64,000 nt of DNA from a candidate division Zixibacteria bacterium CG_4_9_14_3_um_filter_46_8 (GCA_002791595.1 PFXJ01000092.1:17847-81846), one strand, 5' to 3'; counted from the first letter of the stretch, positions 2,182 to 64,000 are shown. A program made the numbers and translations. The notes: generated by a model not told the origin, from the sequence alone.

Positions 2182-4350
2182 TTGCGGAGACTCTTCGCAT
2201 TATCGGTTCTTATCTCGGTTTTATCAATGAGCGTGCAGAGCAGGGGGCAGGTATTTGAATATGTCGGTTCTACCCTTTGGTCGGGGGTTAAAGATGTGCA
2301 AGTTGTAGATAATTATGCTTATTGCGCCGTGCAAAATGGATTAATGATTCTTGATATTTTAGATCCGGAGAAACCGGAAATCATTGGCCGATATTATTAT
2401 TCTGAAGGTGGGCGCACAGCGATTGAGGTCGTCGGCCAATTTGCTTATTTGACGGCTGGCACCGCTGGTTTGGTCATATTGGACGTCTCCGACCCATCGA
2501 ATCCTCTATATATCGGCAGCTACGATACTCCTGATTGCGCGGTCGATGTAGCCATTTCAATCAATGGTGCCGAAAGGTATGCTTATGTCGCCGATATTGG
2601 ATCCCTGCAGGTCATTAACGTTACGGAACCTGCAAGTCCGGCATATATCGGCTTCTACTCGGCGTGGGCCTGCGATGTAGAAAAAGTGTTTATGGATGGC
2701 AATTATGCCTATTTGGCGCTTTTGTACCGCATTGATTTGACTGGTAGATTAGAAATAGTTGATATGTCAAATCCATCAAACCCTAATTACATTGGGGGGT
2801 ATGGGAACTATAATATCGATATCCAGGGCTTGTTCATCAGGGATGGATATGCCTATATTGCCAATTCATGGTATGAATACCCCGGGAGTCCTTTTCATGG
2901 GCTTCTCGTCCTCGATGTTTCCAACCCTGCTAATCCCACATTCATTACCAGAGCGGCCACTGGTCATCCTGCAACCAGCATCACATTGAGCGGCAATTAT
3001 GCTTATTTGACGGAGCTTCTCACTCTTATAATTTATGATATAACAAATCCCGCTAATCCGAATCCGGTCGGCTCTTGTTCGGGTGCAAGAAATTATTCCG
3101 TCGGCTCATCGGTTTCCGATGATGTATTCTATGGCGCTGATGGCGGTTTGAACCTTTTCGATGTGTCAAATCCTTCATCGCCCGCGCTTATTGGCAATGT
3201 GGCCCGCGGCGAAACTCATGGCGTGGCGATTCGAGCTGAGCTCGCCTGTAGAGTTGGTTCTGCGCCGGGCTTTCAAATATTCGATATCTCCGACCCTATT
3301 CTTCCGAAGCCAAGGGGTTCCTATGAGACGCAGGATATTGCTGGAAGTGTTTTTCTGCAGGGGATCTATGCGTATGTGCCGGACGGATCAGAGGGAGTGA
3401 AAATCATCAATATCTCCAACGCTTCAGGACCTGTTTTGGTGGGAGTTTATGATAATCCGAGTGGAGGGGCGCGCCAGGTTTTTGCCTACGAGGATGTTCT
3501 CTATGTAGGCATAGACGAAAGCGGCATAGATATTGTTGATGTTTCCGATCCGGCCAATCCTGTATTGGTCGGCCAGAGTCCAATTCCGAGCTACGCCATC
3601 CGTGGAATTGATGTAAGCGATGGTCATCTGTATGCGTTGGCTTCCTATCCTTTGAATCAGATGTACATATTCGACATATCTGATCCATTGCACCCGATAA
3701 CCAAAGGGACTTATGATATTGAATACCCCAATGGGATCTTTGTAGCAGGCAATATCGCTTACGTTGTGAGTGATGCCGGGCTTGGAATTTTGGATGTTAG
3801 CGATCCATCTAATATATCGCTGATTGGCGGCTATGCCACTCCGGATTGGGCCAAAAAAGTGTATGTCGTCGGCAATACAGCGCTGGTTAGCGTAAATCTA
3901 TCAGGCCTTCTGGCATTGGATGTTTCGGATCCCGCAAATGTCACGATGCTACAAAGCATCGACACACCGGGCAGAGCTTATGACATTGCGGTGTCGAATG
4001 GTTATATTTTCCTCGCTGATGTATATTCATTAATAATATTCCGAATGCTTCAATCGGAGATACCCGATGATGGTGAATATCTGCCGCCCGATTTCGCCCT
4101 TTCTCCTAATTACCCCAATCCATTCAACGTCACGACAACAATTCAGTACGATCTCCCATATCAAACCGATGTAAAAATTGACTTCTTTGATCTTCTTGGC
4201 CGCAAAATTAAGACCCTCAACGAGGGGCTCAAGCCGGCTGGCAAATATTCTATTTTATGGAACGCAGATGGATATTCTTCTGGTATTTATTTTTATAAAA
4301 TGACCGCCGGTGAATATTCCCAATCCCGGAGATGCACTCTGATTAAGTGA
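2182..4350 (+). CDS. Secreted LVIVD-repeat beta-propeller protein with a T9SS C-terminal sorting domain
   Basis: N-terminal signal peptide after a TTG start (GGAG RBS upstream). There are at least 12 repeats of the type YAY(v)A...GL.ILDVSDPSNP..IG, i.e. LVIVD repeats. The C-terminus reads NYPNPFNVTTTIQYDL...GIYFYKM, a T9SS CTD. Confidence 0.75.
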   Translation: MRRLFALSVLISVLSMSVQSRGQVFEYVGSTLWSGVKDVQVVDNYAYCAVQNGLMILDILDPEKPEIIGRYYYSEGGRTAIEVVGQFAYLTAGTAGLVILDVSDPSNPLYIGSYDTPDCAVDVAISINGAERYAYVADIGSLQVINVTEPASPAYIGFYSAWACDVEKVFMDGNYAYLALLYRIDLTGRLEIVDMSNPSNPNYIGGYGNYNIDIQGLFIRDGYAYIANSWYEYPGSPFHGLLVLDVSNPANPTFITRAATGHPATSITLSGNYAYLTELLTLIIYDITNPANPNPVGSCSGARNYSVGSSVSDDVFYGADGGLNLFDVSNPSSPALIGNVARGETHGVAIRAELACRVGSAPGFQIFDISDPILPKPRGSYETQDIAGSVFLQGIYAYVPDGSEGVKIINISNASGPVLVGVYDNPSGGARQVFAYEDVLYVGIDESGIDIVDVSDPANPVLVGQSPIPSYAIRGIDVSDGHLYALASYPLNQMYIFDISDPLHPITKGTYDIEYPNGIFVAGNIAYVVSDAGLGILDVSDPSNISLIGGYATPDWAKKVYVVGNTALVSVNLSGLLALDVSDPANVTMLQSIDTPGRAYDIAVSNGYIFLADVYSLIIFRMLQSEIPDDGEYLPPDFALSPNYPNPFNVTTTIQYDLPYQTDVKIDFFDLLGRKIKTLNEGLKPAGKYSILWNADGYSSGIYFYKMTAGEYSQSRRCTLIK

Positions 4351-6940: not shown

Positions 6941-7846
6941 GTGAATATGCATTTATGGCTTGAGCAGGCTCTAAAATGGCTCATTGCGGTTGGGCCAAAG
7001 GTTGTGGTGACCGTGATCCTCACCCTAATTGCCTTGAGGGCCTCAAGGTCGCTCTCAGATCGTTTTCTGTCCGCTTTCAAAAAAGCTAAGCCGGAGATGG
7101 AAATGCAGAAGCGCGCGGATACGCTTAGTTCGCTGATGCGTTATGTGGCCACCGTAATAATCATAGTGGTCTCCTCGATAATGATTCTGGACGAATTTGG
7201 AATTGATATCGGCCCCATACTGGCGGCCGCAGGCATAGTTGGTTTGGCTGTCGGTTTCGGGGCTCAGCACTTGGTTCAGGATGTTATCAGCGGATTCTTT
7301 ATTCTGATAGAAGATCAAATCCGTGTGGGTGATATTGTCCAGATCGCCGGCAAAAGCGGCCTGGTAGAAAGAGTCAATTTGAGGATGACCACTTTGCGCG
7401 ATTTATCCGGCAATGTTCATTTTGTGCGCAATGGCCAGATAGATGTGGTTACCAATATGACCAAGGAATATTCCTACTATGTGTTCGATATCAGCATTAG
7501 CTATCGCGAAGATATAGAGGAAGTAACCGCTATTATCAAGGAAATCGATGAGCAGATGCGAAATGATCCCCAATTCAAGGATTTTATTCTGGAGCCTATT
7601 GATGTTTTGGGTTTGGACAAGTTCGCCGACTCAGCCATCATAATTCGAGCTCGAGTTAAAACCAAACCGATACGACAATGGAAAGTGGCCAGAGAATTCA
7701 ATCGACGGTTGAAAAAGGAGTTTGATGAAAGAAAAATCGAAATGCCCTATCCACACCTTATGTTATATATGGGTCAGGATAAGAAGGGGGATTCGGCGCC
7801 TTTAAACGTTTCTCTAACAGGAAAATCGGAACATCTTTCCGAATAG
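6941..7846 (+). CDS. mscS: Small-conductance mechanosensitive channel, MscS family
   Basis: Three N-terminal TM helices followed by the MscS signature GFGAQHLVQDVISGFFILIEDQIRVGDIV and a C-terminal beta domain. The start could be the GTG at 6941 or the ATG at 6947. Confidence 0.85.
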   Translation: MNMHLWLEQALKWLIAVGPKVVVTVILTLIALRASRSLSDRFLSAFKKAKPEMEMQKRADTLSSLMRYVATVIIIVVSSIMILDEFGIDIGPILAAAGIVGLAVGFGAQHLVQDVISGFFILIEDQIRVGDIVQIAGKSGLVERVNLRMTTLRDLSGNVHFVRNGQIDVVTNMTKEYSYYVFDISISYREDIEEVTAIIKEIDEQMRNDPQFKDFILEPIDVLGLDKFADSAIIIRARVKTKPIRQWKVAREFNRRLKKEFDERKIEMPYPHLMLYMGQDKKGDSAPLNVSLTGKSEHLSE

Positions 7847-7968
7847 CAAGTTTATACTATTTTCATTCATATTTGTCTGGATAAAGATAATTTATCCCCA
7901 AATGAGTTCAATTTGCGTAATTCGAAAACACTATTAGTCTGAAGAAATTCAATTTTACAGGAGGCAAT

Positions 7969-8562: not shown

Positions 8563-8714
8563 GATTAGCGGCCACAAATATGCATCTTCACGGTCGGCCT
8601 GGATACAATCCTGGCTATTGTAGGGCAGTTTGTGGGTTGGATTTTAAATTCCGATGATAATCGGGAATAGCAATCCGAGAATACGACTACCGGACACACC
8701 CCGGCCTTCGGCCA

Positions 8715-8765
8715 CCCCTCTCAAGAGGGGATTGTTCTATCTCTTATTTCCCCTCTTAAGAGGGG
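8715..8765. repeat. Tandem pair of near-identical hairpins CCCCTC-TCAA-GAGGGG and CCCCTC-TTAA-GAGGGG downstream of the SOD gene
   Basis: Read directly from the sequence: two 16-nt perfect stem-loops about 20 nt apart. The same CCCTCAAGAGGG palindrome recurs at 16281-16295. It may act as a terminator or as a REP-like element. Confidence 0.5.
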
Positions 8766-9055
8766 CGGATACTCTGACATCGTCGGAGGAGACGGGGTGT
8801 GTTATTTCAATATCAACAGCCGCTTGGCCTCCTCCAATCCCCCTTGCTCCATACGCGCCTTAAAATCCATTCGGCAGGGAATATTTTTTTGTAGTGCGGG
8901 GCGTTTCTGCCCCGTATATAATTAAGGGCCGTAGGTCAGACCATCGGTTCCTTTGAAGTGTTCTCCAAGCGATGGGGAACCTTTCTGCTCGAGCTGGTGT
9001 ATAATTAGCGTTGCAAAGATCGAAAATGAACTCTTACATCTCTAAGGAGCCCAAA

Positions 9056-15994: not shown

Positions 15995-16240
15995 GAGAGT
16001 GTTGAAAAAGTCAGGAAACCCGAAAAACGATCTTTACCTTCTCCCGCTTCGTCGGGAGAAGCTTGCCCGTCTGTGGAGGGGTGTCCCGACTTGTCGGGAA
16101 GGGAGAGGGTGTAACCCTAAGCTCCCTTATCCTCCGACTCCTTCTCCCAGTTAATGGGAGAAGGAGAGAAAGAAAAGATATTTTTGAAGCGCGTTCTTTT
16201 TCATGGTAGCCCAGCTTTTTCAACAAGCCCTTCCGCGGGA
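15995..16240 (+). repeat. Copy A of a ~250-bp repeat family with terminal inverted repeats and conserved internal hairpins (MITE-like or structured RNA)
   Basis: By my by-eye alignment it is near-identical over the conserved segments to 52670-52920 (same orientation) and to 44620-44850 (inverted). Flanking TIR is TTGAAAAAG(C/T)CAGG ... CTTTTTCAA. Internal hairpins are CTTCTCCCG-CTTCG-TCGGGAGAAG and CTCCTTCTCCCA-RTTAA-TGGGAGAAGGAG. Confidence 0.75.
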
Positions 16241-16316
16241 ATGACATGTGGAGGAAGTCCGGAAGCCACTTATTCAACAATCCCTCAAGAGGGGACTATA
16301 ATTAATAATTCCGTGC

Positions 16317-44375: not shown

Positions 44376-44572
44376 AAAAAAATCCCCACTTCGGGGATAT
44401 TATTAAATAAAGGTTATTGTCAATAGAAACTCGCGCACCAATAAACCTTCAACCTTCTTCCATCCGGACTATGGCCGTCGGCGTCAGAATTTCACTGGCT
44501 CAGCTTGCGCTCGCGGGCTTTCACCGCCGGTTAAGGAATTTCACCTCACCCCGAAGGTTGATATAAATTTAT
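44376..44572 (-). promoter_or_regulatory. FMN riboswitch (RFN element) with a terminator-type expression platform, leader of the rib operon
   Basis: The minus-strand reading is CUUCGGGGUGAGGUGAAAUUCCUUAACCGGCGGUGAAAGCCCGCGAGCGCAAGCUGAGCCAGUGAAAUUCUGACGCCGACGGCCAUAGUCCGGAUGGAAGAAGGUUGAAGG. It matches the conserved RFN blocks GGUGAAAUUCC, ACCGGCGGU, AGCCCGCGAGC, GACGCCGACGG and AGUCCGGAUGGAAGAAGG. It is followed by the hairpin AUCCCCGAAGUGGGGAU and a U7 run directly upstream of the ribD ATG. Confidence 0.85.
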
Positions 44573-44619
44573 GCATTTTTAGCGAAATGTCAAGTTAATT
44601 CGGCCTATTTTTTGGATGG

Positions 44620-44850
44620 GCTCCTTTGGGCTTATTGAAAAAGCGGGGCTGCCATGAAAAGGGAAGTGCTTTAGAAAATCCTTTTCTTTCTCTCCTTCTC
44701 CCATTAATTGGGAGAAGGAGTTGGGGGATGAGGGAGCTTATGGGGTTGCACCCTCATTCGTCCCGACCAATCGGGACACTTTCTCCCGACGAAGCAGGAG
44801 AAGGTTGAGATTATTTTTCGAGTTTCCTGGCTTTTTCAATACTTCCCTTT
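44620..44850 (-). repeat. Copy B (inverted orientation) of the ~250-bp TIR-flanked hairpin-rich repeat
   Basis: Its reverse complement aligns to copies A and C. It lacks the ~25-nt variable segment and carries the A-type variable hairpin (GUCCCGAUUGGUCGGGAC). It lies between the FMN riboswitch and the dtd promoter. Confidence 0.7.
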
Positions 44851-52669: not shown

Positions 52670-52920
52670 GGGAGTGTTGAAACAGCCAAAAAACTCGAAA
52701 AATGACCTCAACCTTCTCCCGCTTCGTCGGGAGAAGCTTGCCCGCCTGAGGTAGGGTGGCCCCGCCTATAGCGGGGACAGATGAGGGTGTAACCCCATAA
52801 GCTCCCTCATCCTTCGACTCCTTCTCCCAATTAATGGGAGAAGGAGAGAAGGAAAAGATTTTTTTGAAGTGCTTCCCTTTTCATGGCAGCCGAGCTTTTT
52901 CAATAAGCCCGAAAGCGGGA
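52670..52920 (+). repeat. Copy C of the ~250-bp TIR-flanked hairpin-rich repeat
   Basis: Same orientation as copy A. The variable hairpin is CCCCGC-CUAUA-GCGGGG here, versus UCCCGAC-UUG-UCGGGA in copy A; the stem is preserved by compensatory changes. It abuts the stop of the mrp/apbC gene. Confidence 0.75.
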
Positions 52921-52922
52921 AT

Positions 52923-53846
52923 CTAATTTTCTGGATTTCCCAAATCGCTTGGAATGGTTGCAAGTGTTTTATCGGGCAATGCCAAAATCGACCGCACAAC
53001 TTTTTCAAATGCCGCGGCAGTAGCGCTTTTGGAATAATGCTCATAGAATGAAATCCCCAAGTCGGACGATTCCACAATTCGAGGATCGATGGGAACTCGA
53101 CCCAGAAATGGGACCCCCATCTCTTCCGCCATTTTTTCTCCTCCGCCGATTTTAAAAACATTCGTCGTCTCTCCGCAGTGGGGGCAGACGAAGCCGCTCA
53201 TATTCTCAACTACTCCGATGATCGCCATCCCCACTTTCCGGCAAAAAACAATCGACCGACGGACATCATCAATTGCAACATCCTGCGGAGTGGTCACGAT
53301 GACCGCGCCATCCAAGCCGGACAGCAACTGGGCAATCGTCAAAGGTTCATCACCGGTACCGGGAGGCGAATCGATCACCAGATAATCCAAATCGCCCCAT
53401 TCCACATCACGTAGAAACTGCCTGATGATGCTAAATTTTAATGGCCCCCGCCAGATTACCGCCTCATCTTTGTCTGGGGTCATGAACCCAATGGACATTA
53501 CAAAAAGATTATTTCCTTTCCTGACCGGGAATATCACATTTTCGGTCCCATCCAGCGGATGCCCTTCCAGGCCGGTCAGCCTTGGGATACTCGGGCCATG
53601 TATATCAATATCCAATAGGCCCACTTTTTTCCCCGCCAGCGTTAGTGAAGTCGCCAGATTCACGGCCACAGTGCTCTTCCCAACCCCTCCTTTGCCCGAC
53701 AAGACGACAATCTTATGCTTGATCTTGGACATCCTGCCGGTTATGGCGTGCCGATCCACAAAAGCCTTGCCCATGCTGGCTCGACGTTGTTCTATTTCAT
53801 CCTGACGATCATCGTCTATCGCATCGGATTCATGCTCATCTGACAT
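52923..53846 (-). CDS. apbC: Mrp/NBP35 family iron-sulfur cluster carrier ATPase
   Basis: Deviant Walker A KIVVLSGKGGVGKSTVAVNLA and a CxxC motif (CPHCGE). Confidence 0.9.
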   Translation of the reverse strand: MSDEHESDAIDDDRQDEIEQRRASMGKAFVDRHAITGRMSKIKHKIVVLSGKGGVGKSTVAVNLATSLTLAGKKVGLLDIDIHGPSIPRLTGLEGHPLDGTENVIFPVRKGNNLFVMSIGFMTPDKDEAVIWRGPLKFSIIRQFLRDVEWGDLDYLVIDSPPGTGDEPLTIAQLLSGLDGAVIVTTPQDVAIDDVRRSIVFCRKVGMAIIGVVENMSGFVCPHCGETTNVFKIGGGEKMAEEMGVPFLGRVPIDPRIVESSDLGISFYEHYSKSATAAAFEKVVRSILALPDKTLATIPSDLGNPEN

Positions 53847-59296: not shown

Positions 59297-60085
59297 TCAA
59301 TTGATGCCTGTTTCCCCGTACTCCTCCCGAAGAATCTGTTGGAGTAGCTTGGCATTTTTCACCGCCTGGCCCTGATGGCAGTTATTGAAAAATAGATATA
59401 CGCTCTGGGTGGTTTCTTTGAGTTGGCGCAGGTATGCTAGCCAGCCATCCAGTTCCGACCCGCTGTAGTTATAATCATATCGTTCGCCACCCCCGCCCCA
59501 CCATTTGGCTTCATTGCGTCCATGAAATCGAACATACCCGATATCGATAGTCGCCTTTCCATCGGGCAGGAGCATTCCGTCAAGTTGCGGTTCATCCACA
59601 TTGCAGTACCCGATTTTTTCCCTGGATAGCATTTCGAAAAGCTTGGGCGTCACCCAGCTATTATGACGAAACTCCACAAACAGATTGTGCCCTTCAAAAT
59701 CATGCATGTGCCGCTTGAAATATTCCAGATTGGCACGAGTGAGCTTAAATGACCACGGGAATTGTGCCAGAAATCCCTTGAGTTTACCGGACTCGATCAA
59801 TGGCTTGACAGCTTCCAATAGTTTGGCGGCACCGCCAAAGCTCTCATCGCGCGAATGGGTGAAGTCCTGATGGGTTTTCACGATAAATTCGAAATCATCC
59901 TGCGTTTTTCGCGCCATGTTATAAAAGACGCTCGGGTGCGGAATCCCATAATATGTGGAATTTATCTCCACGCACCTGAAATGATCCTTGTAATAATCAA
60001 GCATCTTTCCTTTCTCGATGCCCGGGGGATAGAAAGGCCCGACCCAGTCGGCAAAGCTATATCCGGAGGTCCCTATCTTAAACAT
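59297..60085 (-). CDS. DUF72 (UPF0759) family protein
   Basis: MFKIGTSGYSFADWVGPFYPPGIEKGKMLDYY...EINSTYY is the characteristic DUF72 N-terminus. Confidence 0.75.
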   Translation of the reverse strand: MFKIGTSGYSFADWVGPFYPPGIEKGKMLDYYKDHFRCVEINSTYYGIPHPSVFYNMARKTQDDFEFIVKTHQDFTHSRDESFGGAAKLLEAVKPLIESGKLKGFLAQFPWSFKLTRANLEYFKRHMHDFEGHNLFVEFRHNSWVTPKLFEMLSREKIGYCNVDEPQLDGMLLPDGKATIDIGYVRFHGRNEAKWWGGGGERYDYNYSGSELDGWLAYLRQLKETTQSVYLFFNNCHQGQAVKNAKLLQQILREEYGETGIN

Positions 60086-60213
60086 TTTTATGCTTTTTGG
60101 AAGAATTCTGCTGAAATCGGACTGCGCCGCATTTCGGACAAATCCATTTGCGTTTCTTGTGGAAGGAGCGCTTTTGTTCGACCATCGCTATTTTGCATTT
60201 CTTGCACATCATC

Positions 60214-60810
60214 TCAATCGATAAATCCCAGCCAGTCGCCCAGAAGAAATTGTAGGCGGCCGATTAAAAGTGAGATTCGCGCCATCACCGTATAGCCGAA
60301 AGTGCTCCCGAAAAATATCATCAGGAAATAAATTCCGATCTTGGCGCCGACTCCAATTGCGCCTTTATGCGGTTGCGAAAAATAAAAGTAAATCAGCACC
60401 GATAAAACGGCCACGATGATTATGATGTTGGATAAACTGTTGATGGGCAACATAGTGGCTTTCATTTGCGCAATTATTTGGGCCTGCATCATCGCCGGTA
60501 TCGACACCCCGGCTCCCACACCGATGATAATCGATAGCGGTATTCGCGAATAAGGTGATAGCTTTTTGGAAAAGCGCAGAAACATCACCATGCCCAAAAT
60601 GCCGGGAATGATATAGGAAAGCTTCCCTTCGCTGAAAATCGGGATAAAAAGCTTGGGAATCAACGTGGTGGAAACAGTTACCGCCACGAAATAACCAACA
60701 CTCACTCCCAATAATATGTGCTCAGCCGCCTTGTAGAAGGGATTGTCCTTATACAAAAATGAATAAATCGCCAGCGTCAATATCGCGGCCACGGTTATCC
60801 CGTAATTCAT
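60214..60810 (-). CDS. Hypothetical polytopic membrane protein (operon gene 4 of 4)
   Basis: 198 aa, about six TM helices. Its start abuts the stop of the upstream gene. Confidence 0.5.
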   Translation of the reverse strand: MNYGITVAAILTLAIYSFLYKDNPFYKAAEHILLGVSVGYFVAVTVSTTLIPKLFIPIFSEGKLSYIIPGILGMVMFLRFSKKLSPYSRIPLSIIIGVGAGVSIPAMMQAQIIAQMKATMLPINSLSNIIIIVAVLSVLIYFYFSQPHKGAIGVGAKIGIYFLMIFFGSTFGYTVMARISLLIGRLQFLLGDWLGFID

Positions 60811-61670
60811 TATCGGCCTTTCCTCCTTCTTCCCGCTATCATCACTGTATTCCCAACCAATATCAAAATAATCACAAAGATATGCGCGCCGGATTGGGCA
60901 TCCATCCCTTTGACTGCCCGCCCCGGTTTTCCAATCAGCATTTCATATTCCGCCGCTCCCTTGAGCCCCGCCGCCAGACCGACCAATTGGCCGGACTGCA
61001 GAAAAGGATACATAGTTGTCGCCATTACTGCGGTGACCGCCGGGATAATCTTTACGCCATATCTTGCCTGGGCATAATTGACCCAATAAACCGGAATATC
61101 GCCATCGCCGACTGTTATTACCGCCGCAATATCCTTATAATTTTCTATACCTTCCATAACCGGAAAGCTCCGTATATCCTGGCCGGTATAATCCGAAGGG
61201 AACTCATGGTCAATTCGCTCCCCCAGCGCCAGAATCGCCGTCGTAAATTGGGGACGGAATCCCCAGAAGAGATAATCCTCTCCATACTTCTTATCATACT
61301 CACTCCCGATGCGGCGCAGATTGTCATCACCAACCGCCGCCCCTTCCGCCAGAAGCGCCATTCCGAATACTTTAAGATTTTTCCTGAAACAATGCCTTAG
61401 CAGGGCCTCCGCCAATGGCACCATCTCCGGCAAGGTCGAAGTCTCATGGTCAAATGAGAATATCACCGCCGAGTGTGGAGGGAGCCGGTCAAGAAATCCA
61501 TAGACCTGCCGGACTTCCGCAGTGACTCTCAACGGCAACCCGACTCGAAATATCAGCGGAGCAGCTACCACTATGGCCATCAAGATGAAAATAAAATGAC
61601 GACCCTGAATGCCCATTTTGTTCTTATCATTCTGACCCATCCTATTTTCCTCCCAGGTAGGTCCGCTCAA
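60810..61670 (-). CDS. Hypothetical membrane-anchored protein (operon gene 3 of 4)
   Basis: N-terminal TM segment, a ~220-aa soluble domain, and a C-terminal TM segment. Overlaps the upstream gene by 29 nt. Confidence 0.5.
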   Translation of the reverse strand: MSGPTWEENRMGQNDKNKMGIQGRHFIFILMAIVVAAPLIFRVGLPLRVTAEVRQVYGFLDRLPPHSAVIFSFDHETSTLPEMVPLAEALLRHCFRKNLKVFGMALLAEGAAVGDDNLRRIGSEYDKKYGEDYLFWGFRPQFTTAILALGERIDHEFPSDYTGQDIRSFPVMEGIENYKDIAAVITVGDGDIPVYWVNYAQARYGVKIIPAVTAVMATTMYPFLQSGQLVGLAAGLKGAAEYEMLIGKPGRAVKGMDAQSGAHIFVIILILVGNTVMIAGRRRKGR

Positions 61671-62265
61671 TTCCCAGTATCACCCGTAGCGAAGTGGCGA
61701 TAGTCCCCAGGGCAATCCCGATATATATTCCCCGACGGGCCGCCATCGAAGGCACATTGAGAATCCAATCTGCCGCTTTGGGGATATATGAAGATATTAT
61801 TTCTCCCACTGGAATTCTTCCCAACATCACTATAATCGCCGCCACCAGCAAGAATATCGCCTGGCTGTTGCGGGCCCGGAATCCTCGATAGGCCGCGGAA
61901 GCCACAAAAAATGACAGAAGCGAAAACATTGTGGCTTGCATCGGCGCCTGCACATTTTGAAATAACCAATGAAAGACGGTTCCCTCGCCTCTTCCAAAAA
62001 ACAGACCCGCCACCAACATAACCGTTATTCCCATAAGGATCAAAATGCTGAAAGGCCGCTCTTTGGCGTCTCTGCCGGAAGCGATGACAGCGTGATGCTT
62101 TATCAGCATCATCGCTCCCACCAGCAGTGAGAATGCGTATATGATCTGCACCCAATCCAGAATCGCTTCATACAGGGCGGTCGAAGCTTTATGCGGCACA
62201 AAAAATTGAACCAGCATAAAAGTCCCCAAGGCAAAGCAGATTAATAGGGGAAGTTTCCGATGCAT
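61642..62265 (-). CDS. Hypothetical polytopic membrane protein (operon gene 2 of 4)
   Basis: 207 aa, about six TM helices. Confidence 0.5.
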   Translation of the reverse strand: MHRKLPLLICFALGTFMLVQFFVPHKASTALYEAILDWVQIIYAFSLLVGAMMLIKHHAVIASGRDAKERPFSILILMGITVMLVAGLFFGRGEGTVFHWLFQNVQAPMQATMFSLLSFFVASAAYRGFRARNSQAIFLLVAAIIVMLGRIPVGEIISSYIPKAADWILNVPSMAARRGIYIGIALGTIATSLRVILGIERTYLGGK

Positions 62266-62271
62266 TGCGGG

Positions 62272-63444
62272 TTATCCTATCTCAAGAACAGAAAGCAATT
62301 CGCCGCCTCCAGCAGTCACCAAGATGGCGCCCAATATGAGCAAAATCCCTAATATCAGCTTAAGCATATCCTGCCCTTTTAGCGAGCTTAGAACCAGAGG
62401 ATCCTTGGCCAAATACCCTGATGCCGCAAAATACTCCTCCCCAATCAATACATAATCGCAAGCGACAATAAAGAACGAAAGCTGGATGGTGGAATCGGTT
62501 CCGGCGATTTGAATGGCGCCGATAGAATTGCCGGTCTCGGCCAAAATCAGGGACTCCGCCTCGAATGACCCCATAAAGAGATTGGTGGCAGGCCTTTGTC
62601 TTACCATAATTCCATCGACCGCCGCCGCATATCCGAATTGGCTATCGGTCAGGTAGAAGATATTCTCAGCCACATAACGGTCGGGATGTCCGGCTTTGAC
62701 ATACGCCTCATAAGCAACCTCTTGGGCAACGGCGGCAACCACGGGATCGTTATTGGGAAACAGTAGCGGCGTGTTATATTCGGCGGCTTTCGTCGCCACC
62801 GAGGAAAGCACATTCATCGAGGCAATCGTAGCCACCCTTTGCATACTTCCCCTGCCCGCAGAATATAGTATCGGTTTGCCAAGCTCTGTGGCGCGACCAA
62901 CCGCCTCATCAATCGCCTGCAAACCGGCTATCGGCCGGACGTAGAAGAATCCGCCCTTCCGCCCCCGATAAAAATAATATCCCAGAACCACGATGCAAAT
63001 CAGCACCCCAATTAAAACATTTGTTCGGCGGGAATTGAACAATTGCGGTGATGATTTCGCCGGTTCGGAGTCCACTATTATGGCCCCGCCACTTACATCG
63101 GTGAAGATCAGACGGTATGTGTAGCCTACCCCATTTTCTACATTATCGTCAACATAAACAGAATCATCGATTGGTATTTTCCCCAAATCGTCCCAACCGG
63201 AACCGGAAACAACCCTCCTTTGAATCTCTATCCGGACATATTCGGCTTGAGAAGCCCTGAGCGGCTCGGTATCCCAGACCACAGTGATACTATTACCGCC
63301 ATCATCGGGCGTGTCAAAAGCCCTTACGCCTCCGATAGCCGCAGTTGGAAGAATCAAGAGAAAGATGGCAAAACATAGAGCGATCATAATTTCATATCCC
63401 GATGCGATTTGATGAAGTTTATCGGCAACTGACTTGGTTGTCAA
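62272..63444 (-). CDS. Hypothetical membrane protein with an N-terminal fibronectin-III-like domain (operon gene 1 of 4)
   Basis: Signal-anchor, then an FN3-like segment (NSITVVWDTEPLRASQAEYVRIEIQRR...GYTYRLIFTD), a TM helix, a ~190-aa domain and a C-terminal TM helix. Confidence 0.5.
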   Translation of the reverse strand: MTTKSVADKLHQIASGYEIMIALCFAIFLLILPTAAIGGVRAFDTPDDGGNSITVVWDTEPLRASQAEYVRIEIQRRVVSGSGWDDLGKIPIDDSVYVDDNVENGVGYTYRLIFTDVSGGAIIVDSEPAKSSPQLFNSRRTNVLIGVLICIVVLGYYFYRGRKGGFFYVRPIAGLQAIDEAVGRATELGKPILYSAGRGSMQRVATIASMNVLSSVATKAAEYNTPLLFPNNDPVVAAVAQEVAYEAYVKAGHPDRYVAENIFYLTDSQFGYAAAVDGIMVRQRPATNLFMGSFEAESLILAETGNSIGAIQIAGTDSTIQLSFFIVACDYVLIGEEYFAASGYLAKDPLVLSSLKGQDMLKLILGILLILGAILVTAGGGELLSVLEIG

Positions 63445-64000
63445 GCCAATTCACAATATGCGATAGGCGAGCTTGGGCATGTGAACAATAAACATAGCCA
63501 AGCCTAACCCCAATCCCGGATTAAATCCGGGACGAAGGGGTTCGACTTGACCATGCCACTCGTCCGAGGTCATCAGGTTTAGAAATGATGATGTTGAAAA
63601 TAGGATAGAGTGGGTGTTGATGAAGATGCATGAGAAGTCGGAAAGGCAATTCCCTCACCCGCCTCCGCCTGCGGCGGAGCTACCCTCTTCCGATGAACGA
63701 GAGAGGAGAGTAGGTCAAACCTACTTGGGCTTGACGTTTCTCTTAATCCGACTTCGAGTGTCATACCAGCGAACGCTGGTATCCAGAAATGAATCTGGAT
63801 TCCGGATCAAGTCCGGAATGACACTGCAAGGAAAGGGGGCAGGCGGTGAGGGAGATTGCTCCCACCCCAAATCCCGTCCCACGAAAAATACTCCTTGACA
63901 ATTCCGGAAATCATTGTAAAATTAAATCAACGTCCATCTCATTGCGTGTATGGCAGACCTCCCGGTCTGCCTTGATGGGTAGGCAGACGAGGACGTCTGC

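Follow-up and report, generated by a model that had tools for sequence, protein, structure and literature searches.

BIMEs are clusters of REP units in enterobacteria, and NIMEs are RS segments of Neisseria bounded by dRS3 repeats. REP units are dispersed in many intergenic regions, and REPs and REPINs are mobilized by RAYTs, which are Y1 transposases of the IS200/IS605 type. The attC sites of integrons fold into imperfect hairpins that have extrahelical bases and carry the R''-L''...L'-R' boxes at their base, and such sites follow promoterless cassettes in series, usually in the company of intI.

Another family of palindromic repeats comprises the Neisseria Transformation Sequence (NTS), CGTCATTCCCGCGMAVGCGGGAATCYRG, and the broader Ssn-related motif (SRM; PMC11893778, Nat Commun 2025). 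As described in that report, these are oriented hairpin repeats whose binding and cleavage by small GIY-YIG nucleases (SsnA, cd10448) require the DNA to be single-stranded (ssDNA); the three nucleotides 5' of the palindrome (GTC) matter for cleavage, the C directly 3' of it matters for binding, and the NTS consensus ends in ATCYRG (PMC11893778). The report further describes the repeats as clustering around particular genes, including surface-protein genes, and the SRM as abundant in Sphingomonas, among others; the gene for the cd10448 GIY-YIG (Ssn) protein is often itself flanked by the motif (PMC11893778).

We analyzed the end (63445-64000) of a 64,000-nucleotide stretch of DNA from a candidate division Zixibacteria bacterium, hereafter called the window. 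On balance, we consider it probable that this segment, which lies between two promoters, is a mosaic of REP-like hairpin units that is specific to the lineage and centered on an inverted pair of the NTS/SRM type. The ends of the spacer are ordinary sigma-70 promoters, directed leftward into a DUF6754 operon and rightward into a T9SS gene with delta-60 repeats, and the 450 bp between the -35 boxes would be a mosaic of REP-like palindromic DNA, comparable to the enterobacterial BIMEs and the NIMEs of Neisseria. Its centerpiece would be a tail-to-tail inverted pair of the NTS/SRM class, GTC-AT[stem-loop]AT-CCAG. The likeness to NIMEs and BIMEs lies in the mosaic of different short palindromic units, which is intergenic, species-specific and often found beside variable surface-protein genes; unlike them, the cluster in the window has no tandem unit structure, and no other copies of its units occur within the window.

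The spacer and its divergent promoters

The segment corresponds to a spacer of ~690 bp that separates two divergently oriented transcription units in a Zixibacteria genome. The two divergent -35 boxes are separated by 450 bp, and the segment consists of those 450 bp, one promoter and a partial 5' UTR. The neighbor on the minus strand is a gene for a DUF6754 protein, whose homologs come from candidate division Zixibacteria. A promoter scan located the sigma-70 promoter of the DUF6754 operon at 63416-63444 (minus strand), with TTGACA as the -35 box (63444-63439), a spacer of 17 nt and TAAACT as the -10 box (63421-63416). This promoter is conserved in relatives, and AATTGGCTTGACA...ATAAACTT is kept upstream of the orthologous genes in L004-L006. 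Public records call the start of the DUF6754 gene either at a TTG at 63444, giving 390 aa (62272-63444, minus strand), or at an ATG at 63387, giving 371 aa, a form called on 8 contigs. Since the conserved promoter falls within the longer ORF, the true start is likely the ATG at 63387 and the product the 371-aa form. The gene is part of a conserved Zixibacteria cluster (59297-63387 in the window, minus strand; L004-L009), in which it is accompanied by three membrane proteins (~207, 275 and 198 aa) that lack a significant Pfam domain, and DUF72 is usually next.

On the plus-strand side, an exact 30-mer scan retrieved a metagenome contig (L001) that is identical to the window and extends it by 1.1 kb. 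The extension contains, 70 nt beyond the window end, a GAGGAG Shine-Dalgarno sequence and the ATG (virtual position 64070) of a T9SS gene, the product of which has 280 aa in L001, with a signal peptide, delta-60-type repeats and a C-terminal T9SS sorting domain. The promoter of this gene, also detected by the promoter scan (63895-63922, plus strand), is composed of TTGACA, a 16-nt spacer and TAAAAT, and agrees with the consensus at 11 of 12 positions. The length of the gene varies between records of the same species, from 280 aa (L001 213-1055) to 488 aa (L009 253-1719); the difference amounts to four 52-aa repeats between two identical repeat copies, and reflects either real variation in repeat number or assembly collapse.

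Two GCAGAC-type hairpins, GGCAGACC-TCCC-GGTCTGCC and GGCAGACG-AGGA-CGTCTGC(C), occupy 63952-64000 (plus strand), as read from the sequence and its L001 extension. Both lie within the ~140-nt 5' UTR of the T9SS gene, and a third GCAGAC hairpin, GCGCAGACA-GGAA-TGTCTGCGC, is located ~40 nt past its stop codon, which makes 3 copies of this family within 1.05 kb. A first-pass annotation of this DNA had suggested that the two hairpins mark the start of a repeat array. The contig extension revealed the T9SS gene instead, and with the T9SS promoter upstream and the ATG 70 nt past the window, the hairpins sit in a 5' UTR and not at the start of an array. From their positions, the GCAGAC hairpins may be mRNA-end hairpins of the T9SS transcript.

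The two GCAGAC palindromes at the window end, together with GCCTAAC and GTTAGGC-like cores inside the long hairpin described below, would also suit the edge of an array of integron attC or other recombination sites, or a palindromic array past the window. We assign next to no probability to this reading, as the extension contains a gene and no array, the pairing runs 8-14 bp past the putative core sites with an imperfect partner core, and no integrase gene is adjacent, the DUF6754 operon lying on one flank and the T9SS gene on the other. An integron attC site as such was rejected: the core-like GCCTAAC is located mid-stem, the flanked gene has a strong promoter of its own, and no array appears in the extension.

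Hairpins are concentrated in the segment. In a census of perfect hairpins (stem of at least 7 bp, loop of 3-8 nt) across the entire 64-kb window, 9 of the 46 hairpins fell within 63501-64000 versus 37 across the other 63.5 kb, a ~30-fold excess. As RNA, the 556-nt segment folded at -219 kcal/mol on the plus strand (z -7.7) and -230.8 kcal/mol on the minus strand (z -8.2), and on neither strand did any of 100 shuffles equal these values. All of the perfect stem-loops named in the first-pass annotation are present in the sequence, including CTCCGCC-TGC-GGCGGAG (63663-63679) and AGTAGGT-CAA-ACCTACT (63709-63725), which were also recovered by the census, and the small hairpin GGGAG-ATTG-CTCCC (63850-63863). 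The stem-loop given as CCGGAUUUAAUCCGG exists too, but in a minus-strand reading; the plus strand reads CCGGATTAAATCCGG. Most hairpins of the cluster outside the unit pair are unique sequences. A short-word BLAST of the segment against the rest of the window and the relatives' loci recovered the conserved promoter only; the other 63 kb of the window contain no further copy of the segment's palindromes, and the GCAGAC-N-GTCTGC and CCGGA-type patterns were found nowhere else in the window. This counts against the reading as REP-like units, since numerous copies per genome, in excess of shuffled sequence, are the hallmark of REP and SRM elements.

Perfect palindromes of 16-20 bp within a divergent promoter region, with GCAGAC-N4-GTCTGC occurring twice just downstream of the plus-strand promoter, might be transcription-factor operators for both promoters. 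However, each of the at least seven different palindromes would call for a regulator of its own, most of the palindromes are 70-380 bp away from either -35 box, and the third GCAGAC copy, 3' of the gene, would be senseless for an operator. The stem, the 3-6-nt loop and the oriented non-palindromic flanks are instead the geometry of REP and NTS elements, and we consider the operator explanation very unlikely. A replication origin was also considered and rejected, since the mixed gene orientation and a GC skew that tracks the coding strand give it no support.

The segment is non-coding, and the earlier claim that it holds no plausible ORF was borne out. A Pfam search of its five ORFs gave no match, and the 92-aa ORF, which gene callers had annotated on the segment in two public assemblies, matched only itself among 5.8 billion proteins. 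Lacking a homolog, this ORF is a spurious gene call, and gene callers thus put spurious ORFs onto hairpin-repeat clusters of this type in public assemblies. ORF calls of 92-101 aa on hairpin-repeat clusters are located at 63620-63898 (plus strand) in the window, L002 15-293, L009 1891-2169 and L031 1997-2302. An Rfam scan, the check that the first-pass annotation had proposed, found no family in the segment. At the gathering threshold nothing matched there, the sole match in the window being an FMN riboswitch; at an E-value threshold, the best match in the segment (E 0.12) was a miRNA model on the long hairpin. ARAGORN found no tRNA or tmRNA in the window.

Inverted hairpin units in an apparent four-way junction

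RNA and ssDNA folds produced an apparent four-way junction of ~67 nt at 63757-63825. This had been noticed before as a closed 7-bp helix around three hairpins; the fold is as stated, and forms on both strands, but its span is 63757-63825 instead of 63761-63830. The z-scores on the two strands were -6.2 and -6.6 for the junction as RNA, and -7.2 and -6.8 as ssDNA. It was rightly held not to be a tRNA: ARAGORN reported none, the arms have 6-8 bp and the loops 2-6 nt, and there are no junction nucleotides.

Searching all sequences at hand for GTCA followed by a perfect hairpin, we found that the outer hairpins of the junction are one unit type on opposite strands, GTCA-TACCAGC-GAAC-GCTGGTA-TCCAGA (plus) and GTCA-TTCCGGA-CTTGA-TCCGGAA-TCCAGA (minus). 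Unit 1, T-GTCAT-ACCAGCG-AA-CGCTGGT-ATCCAGA, is located at 63759-63787 on the plus strand (SRM pattern match and alignment A4, see below), and unit 2, T-GTCAT-TCCGGA-CTTGA-TCCGGA-ATCCAGA, is inverted, at 63795-63823 on the minus strand (hairpin search and alignment A4). Each unit contributes its own stem as one of the outer hairpins; the two GTCAT heads pair to give the closing helix GTGTCAT/ATGACAC, and the two TCCAGA tails, 6 nt apart, pair to give the middle hairpin ATCCAGA-AATGAA-TCTGGAT (63781-63800). All of the junction stems are perfect Watson-Crick helices that fold equally on both strands. A perfect junction without unpaired nucleotides is therefore the geometric consequence of a tail-to-tail inverted pair with shared flanks. 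The junction gives no evidence of a dedicated structured RNA, since it is explained by two inverted GTCAT...ATCCAG units with strand-symmetric stems. A false trail is thereby closed: what looked like a cloverleaf arises incidentally from a pair of repeats in inverted orientation, and represents no new RNA class.

Both units have GTC before the palindrome (TGTC-AT...) and C after it (...AT-CCAGA), as reported for the NTS. Their flanks and outer stem equal those of the published NTS consensus, with which unit 2 has GTCATTCC...GGAATCCAG in common. When compared with the SRM pattern as given in the report, HGTCWYN(0-2)YYVSBRHN(0-5)WNVSBRGN(0-2)RNCYNB (PMC11893778), unit 1 matched, and unit 2 and one Sphingopyxis copy were each one position off; the pattern by itself is weak, with at least one match in 31 of 200 shuffles of the 65 kb. 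The combination of GTCA, a perfect 7-8-bp hairpin and TCCA occurred twice in 65 kb versus never in 200 dinucleotide shuffles, and the unit pair is the sole SRM-type pair within the 65 kb. We aligned 11 units (alignment A4), comprising the NTS consensus, 2 units from the window, 3 from L028 and 5 from replicons of Sphingomonads. None of the 11 varied in the GTCA and TCC flanks. The 7-bp stem was 100% paired, with compensatory changes at 4 of its 7 pairs, a count that is not independent evidence of covariation because the units were preselected as hairpins.

Like the NTS and SRM, the locus has an oriented hairpin repeat of ~28 nt, which is intergenic and beside a gene for a secreted or surface protein, and which is composed of a 5' (C/T)GTCAT, a 7-bp stem starting with ATnCC, a variable loop of 2-5 nt and a 3' ATCCAG. 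The differences are that the 65 kb contain just two units besides one or two degenerate ones, whereas NTS/SRM repeats typically number hundreds per genome, and that the inner stem sequences of the window units differ from those of the NTS. The host belongs to the Zixibacteria, a phylum without mention in the main text of the report, where, to our knowledge, there is also no description of a tail-to-tail pair with a 6-nt spacer giving a perfect junction (PMC11893778). In addition, the window yielded no Ssn gene: a regular-expression search of its six-frame ORFs for the GIY-YIG motif returned no Ssn-like ORF, and none was present among the Pfam-tested ORFs.

The units are like REP/REPIN sequences in their inverted short palindromes, short spacer and single-strand folding, and in a function that would derive from the hairpin and a short conserved 5' sequence. 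In contrast, REPIN units are near-identical and form one long hairpin, whereas the stems here differ and the flanks are common, giving a junction, and the conserved 5' sequence is GTCAT here rather than of the GTAG type.

By analogy with Neisseria, we infer the activities of the units, their dependence on Ssn included, as follows. The units would act as ssDNA hairpins, in which the stem and the 3' C are bound by a small Ssn nuclease of the GIY-YIG type that cuts 5' of the palindrome; units of this type would also tend to bracket surface-protein genes. Here too, the NTS/SRM-type units adjoin a gene for a secreted, repeat-variable protein. The locus would extend the NTS/SRM family, whose description dates from 2025, to a candidate phylum for which metagenomes are the sole source, and if an Ssn partner exists in these genomes, it would be a natural test case for the role of the repeat outside Neisseria.

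The long hairpin near the DUF6754 promoter

The RNA fold and its pair list revealed a long hairpin of 35 bp, including 8 G·U pairs, at 63483-63565 on the minus strand. In a GC-regressed fold scan, it was the most extreme 120-nt stretch in the 65 kb. All 8 of the G·U pairs are on the minus strand and none on the plus strand, a bias with a two-sided probability of ~0.008 under a neutral model. As RNA, the hairpin folded at -44.9 kcal/mol (z -8.4) on the minus strand versus -27.4 kcal/mol (z -4.5) on the plus strand, and as ssDNA at -19.9 versus -15.2. The 8/8 bias points to selection on a minus-strand transcript, and some RNA-level function of the long hairpin is therefore likely.

On the minus strand, the hairpin is followed by a U-rich tail, UUUAUUGUU (~63490-63481), and it stops 39 nt short of the DUF6754 -35 box. 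A stable hairpin thus stands directly before a U tract, as in a terminator; a simple terminator scanner left it out, the stem being beyond the limits of the scanner. Judging from this arrangement, it looks like a terminator or insulator against minus-strand transcription from the spacer, and the long hairpin with its tail may shield the DUF6754 promoter in this way. Rho-independent terminators likewise have a hairpin followed by such a tail, but their stems are usually far shorter than the one here, which has 29-35 bp and 8 G·U pairs, and there is no upstream minus-strand gene for it to terminate. In L027, a hairpin AGGGCGGTGA...TCACCGCCCT followed by TTGCTTTT is present both upstream and downstream of a homologous T9SS gene.

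The tip of the long hairpin is a perfect palindrome from the census, TCCCGGAT-TAA-ATCCGGGA (63514-63532). It belongs to a direct-repeat family (D1), being 78% identical to 63799-63821, and the pattern CCGGAYYWRRTCCGG occurs in the window only in this palindrome and in the unit at 63795-63823. By sequence likeness, the tip palindrome is a degenerate relative of this CCGGA-type unit.

The same strand bias would fit an orphan structured ncRNA of ~420 nt on the minus strand, running from a weak promoter that overlaps the T9SS promoter through the junction to the long hairpin and its U tail (63565-63481). The hairpin is far more stable on that strand, where it has its 8 G·U pairs and A·C pairs are absent, and is followed by the U-rich tail; the entire region also folds strongly in this orientation (z -8.2, as above). 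A minus-strand promoter-like site, ATGAGA-18-TACAAT, agrees with the consensus at 9 of 12 positions (-10 at 63918-63913), and 63560-63650 is unstructured, G-poor and pyrimidine-rich on the minus strand, resembling an sRNA seed. However, the -35 box is poor, and the stems of the junction are uninformative as to strand and accounted for by the inverted unit pair. No homolog was found in relatives, Rfam or the phage and plasmid collections, and the closest sequenced relatives are without the region, which is hence not a conserved RNA gene. We regard such an ncRNA as unlikely, although the long hairpin keeps it in play as a rival.

Relatives, other replicons and the rest of the window

Across nine contigs that represent this species in different samples, the spacer is identical save for one SNP at 63565, which leaves no covariation signal; exact and protein-guided scans of the GTDB representative genomes did not find the species. 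In the next relatives, DUF6754 is 63-69% identical and the four-gene operon and DUF72 are kept. Upstream of DUF6754, these relatives have only 130-240 bp and then a different neighboring gene, and nothing in their loci could be aligned to the segment past the DUF6754 promoter. Since the region is missing from the closest sequenced relatives, it is lineage-specific and not a conserved RNA gene. The notion of a conserved structured RNA, for which the first-pass annotation had looked to the conservation of the stems in relatives, is thereby lost, as the relatives have no homologous region.

A lineage-specific region beside a gene that relatives lack at this place might have a neutral origin, in which the spacer was born of the insertion of the T9SS gene and the hairpins are functionless by-products, either decayed MITEs or quasi-palindromes perfected by template switching. 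The genome has other MITE-like repeats, and the same-species copies are all identical, hence show no measurable selection. Such an origin is at odds with the specific flanks that both units have in common with a family from other phyla, with the G·U bias of the long hairpin (two-sided probability of ~0.008 under the neutral model) and with the perfection of all stems, which is contrary to decay. We find a purely neutral origin improbable.

The segment was also compared with other replicons. The phage collections contained no notable match to the segment, with 0 in one viral-contig scan. A plasmid BLAST identified a 27-nt exact match between 63796-63822 of the window, the hairpin of unit 2 with its flanks, and an intergenic repeat of Sphingopyxis indica pMC4 (L023 3001-3027), which lies in an intergenic palindrome pair (E 3e-3 for the 556-nt query). 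This identity reflects either convergence within the NTS/SRM family or horizontal spread. Several Sphingomonadaceae have like units; all of these lie in unannotated DNA, and a single record often contains several.

Homologs of the T9SS gene (~60% identity) in three other contigs (L027, L028 and L030) have the same layout as the window: a hairpin-dense stretch, a TTGACA promoter, a 5' UTR, GGAGG, the ATG of the gene and more hairpins. Identical hairpins recur on either side of the gene in L027. In L028/L031, four canonical SRM copies (GTCATCCCCGCGAAAGCGGGGATCCAG and a variant) adjoin two tandem homologous T9SS genes. Three of the four copies in L028 bound a 217-nt unit, which is repeated three times, an arrangement like that of NIMEs. 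In L031, which covers 21 kb around the L028 locus, 31 of the 36 perfect hairpins of at least 8 bp are intergenic, with several recurring families. The recurrence of hairpin families in these other contigs indicates that hairpin mosaics are common in the intergenic DNA of such genomes, and the segment would be one example.

A more far-reaching proposal would be that inverted NTS/SRM pairs are strand-symmetric targets of an Ssn-type ssDNA nuclease, which extrude as four-way junctions, bracket genes for repeat-rich T9SS surface proteins and tune their recombination or repeat number in Zixibacteria and other uncultured T9SS lineages; or else that the 420 nt in question give an orphan regulatory RNA on the minus strand, which ends at the G·U-rich hairpin. 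We offer this as speculation, and judge it quite unlikely to be correct.

Apart from the spacer and its counterparts, several structured or repeated elements were observed. Matches to Acido-Lenti-1 (RF01687) in L031 are located on repeated hairpin pairs at 7691-7735 and 7908-7952 (minus strand) and 2343-2387 (plus strand), two of the three between SRM copies, suggesting that the 'sRNA' motif belongs to a repeat mosaic. In the window, a structured intergenic stretch (8686-8802 and 8890-8915), with a GC-corrected fold z of ~-4 on both strands and no Rfam match, consists of a CACACCCCG...CGGGGTGTG helix around two CCCCTCTyAAGAGGGG hairpins, then GTGCGGGGCGTTTCTGCCCCGTAT, and lies upstream of a small ORF that begins at ~9057. 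A MITE-like repeat of ~270 nt occurs at 15996-16270 and 52672-52945, and as a partial inverted copy at ~44600-44780, the copies being 85-90% identical. Its ends are of the TTGAAAAAGC/GCTTTTTCAA type, perfect hairpins of 9 bp and 12 bp (CTTCTCCCGCTTCGTCGGGAGAAG; CTCCTTCTCCCAnTTAATGGGAGAAGGAG) lie within it, and its third copy abuts the FMN riboswitch (RF00050), which Rfam placed at 44448-44562 on the minus strand with 105 bits.
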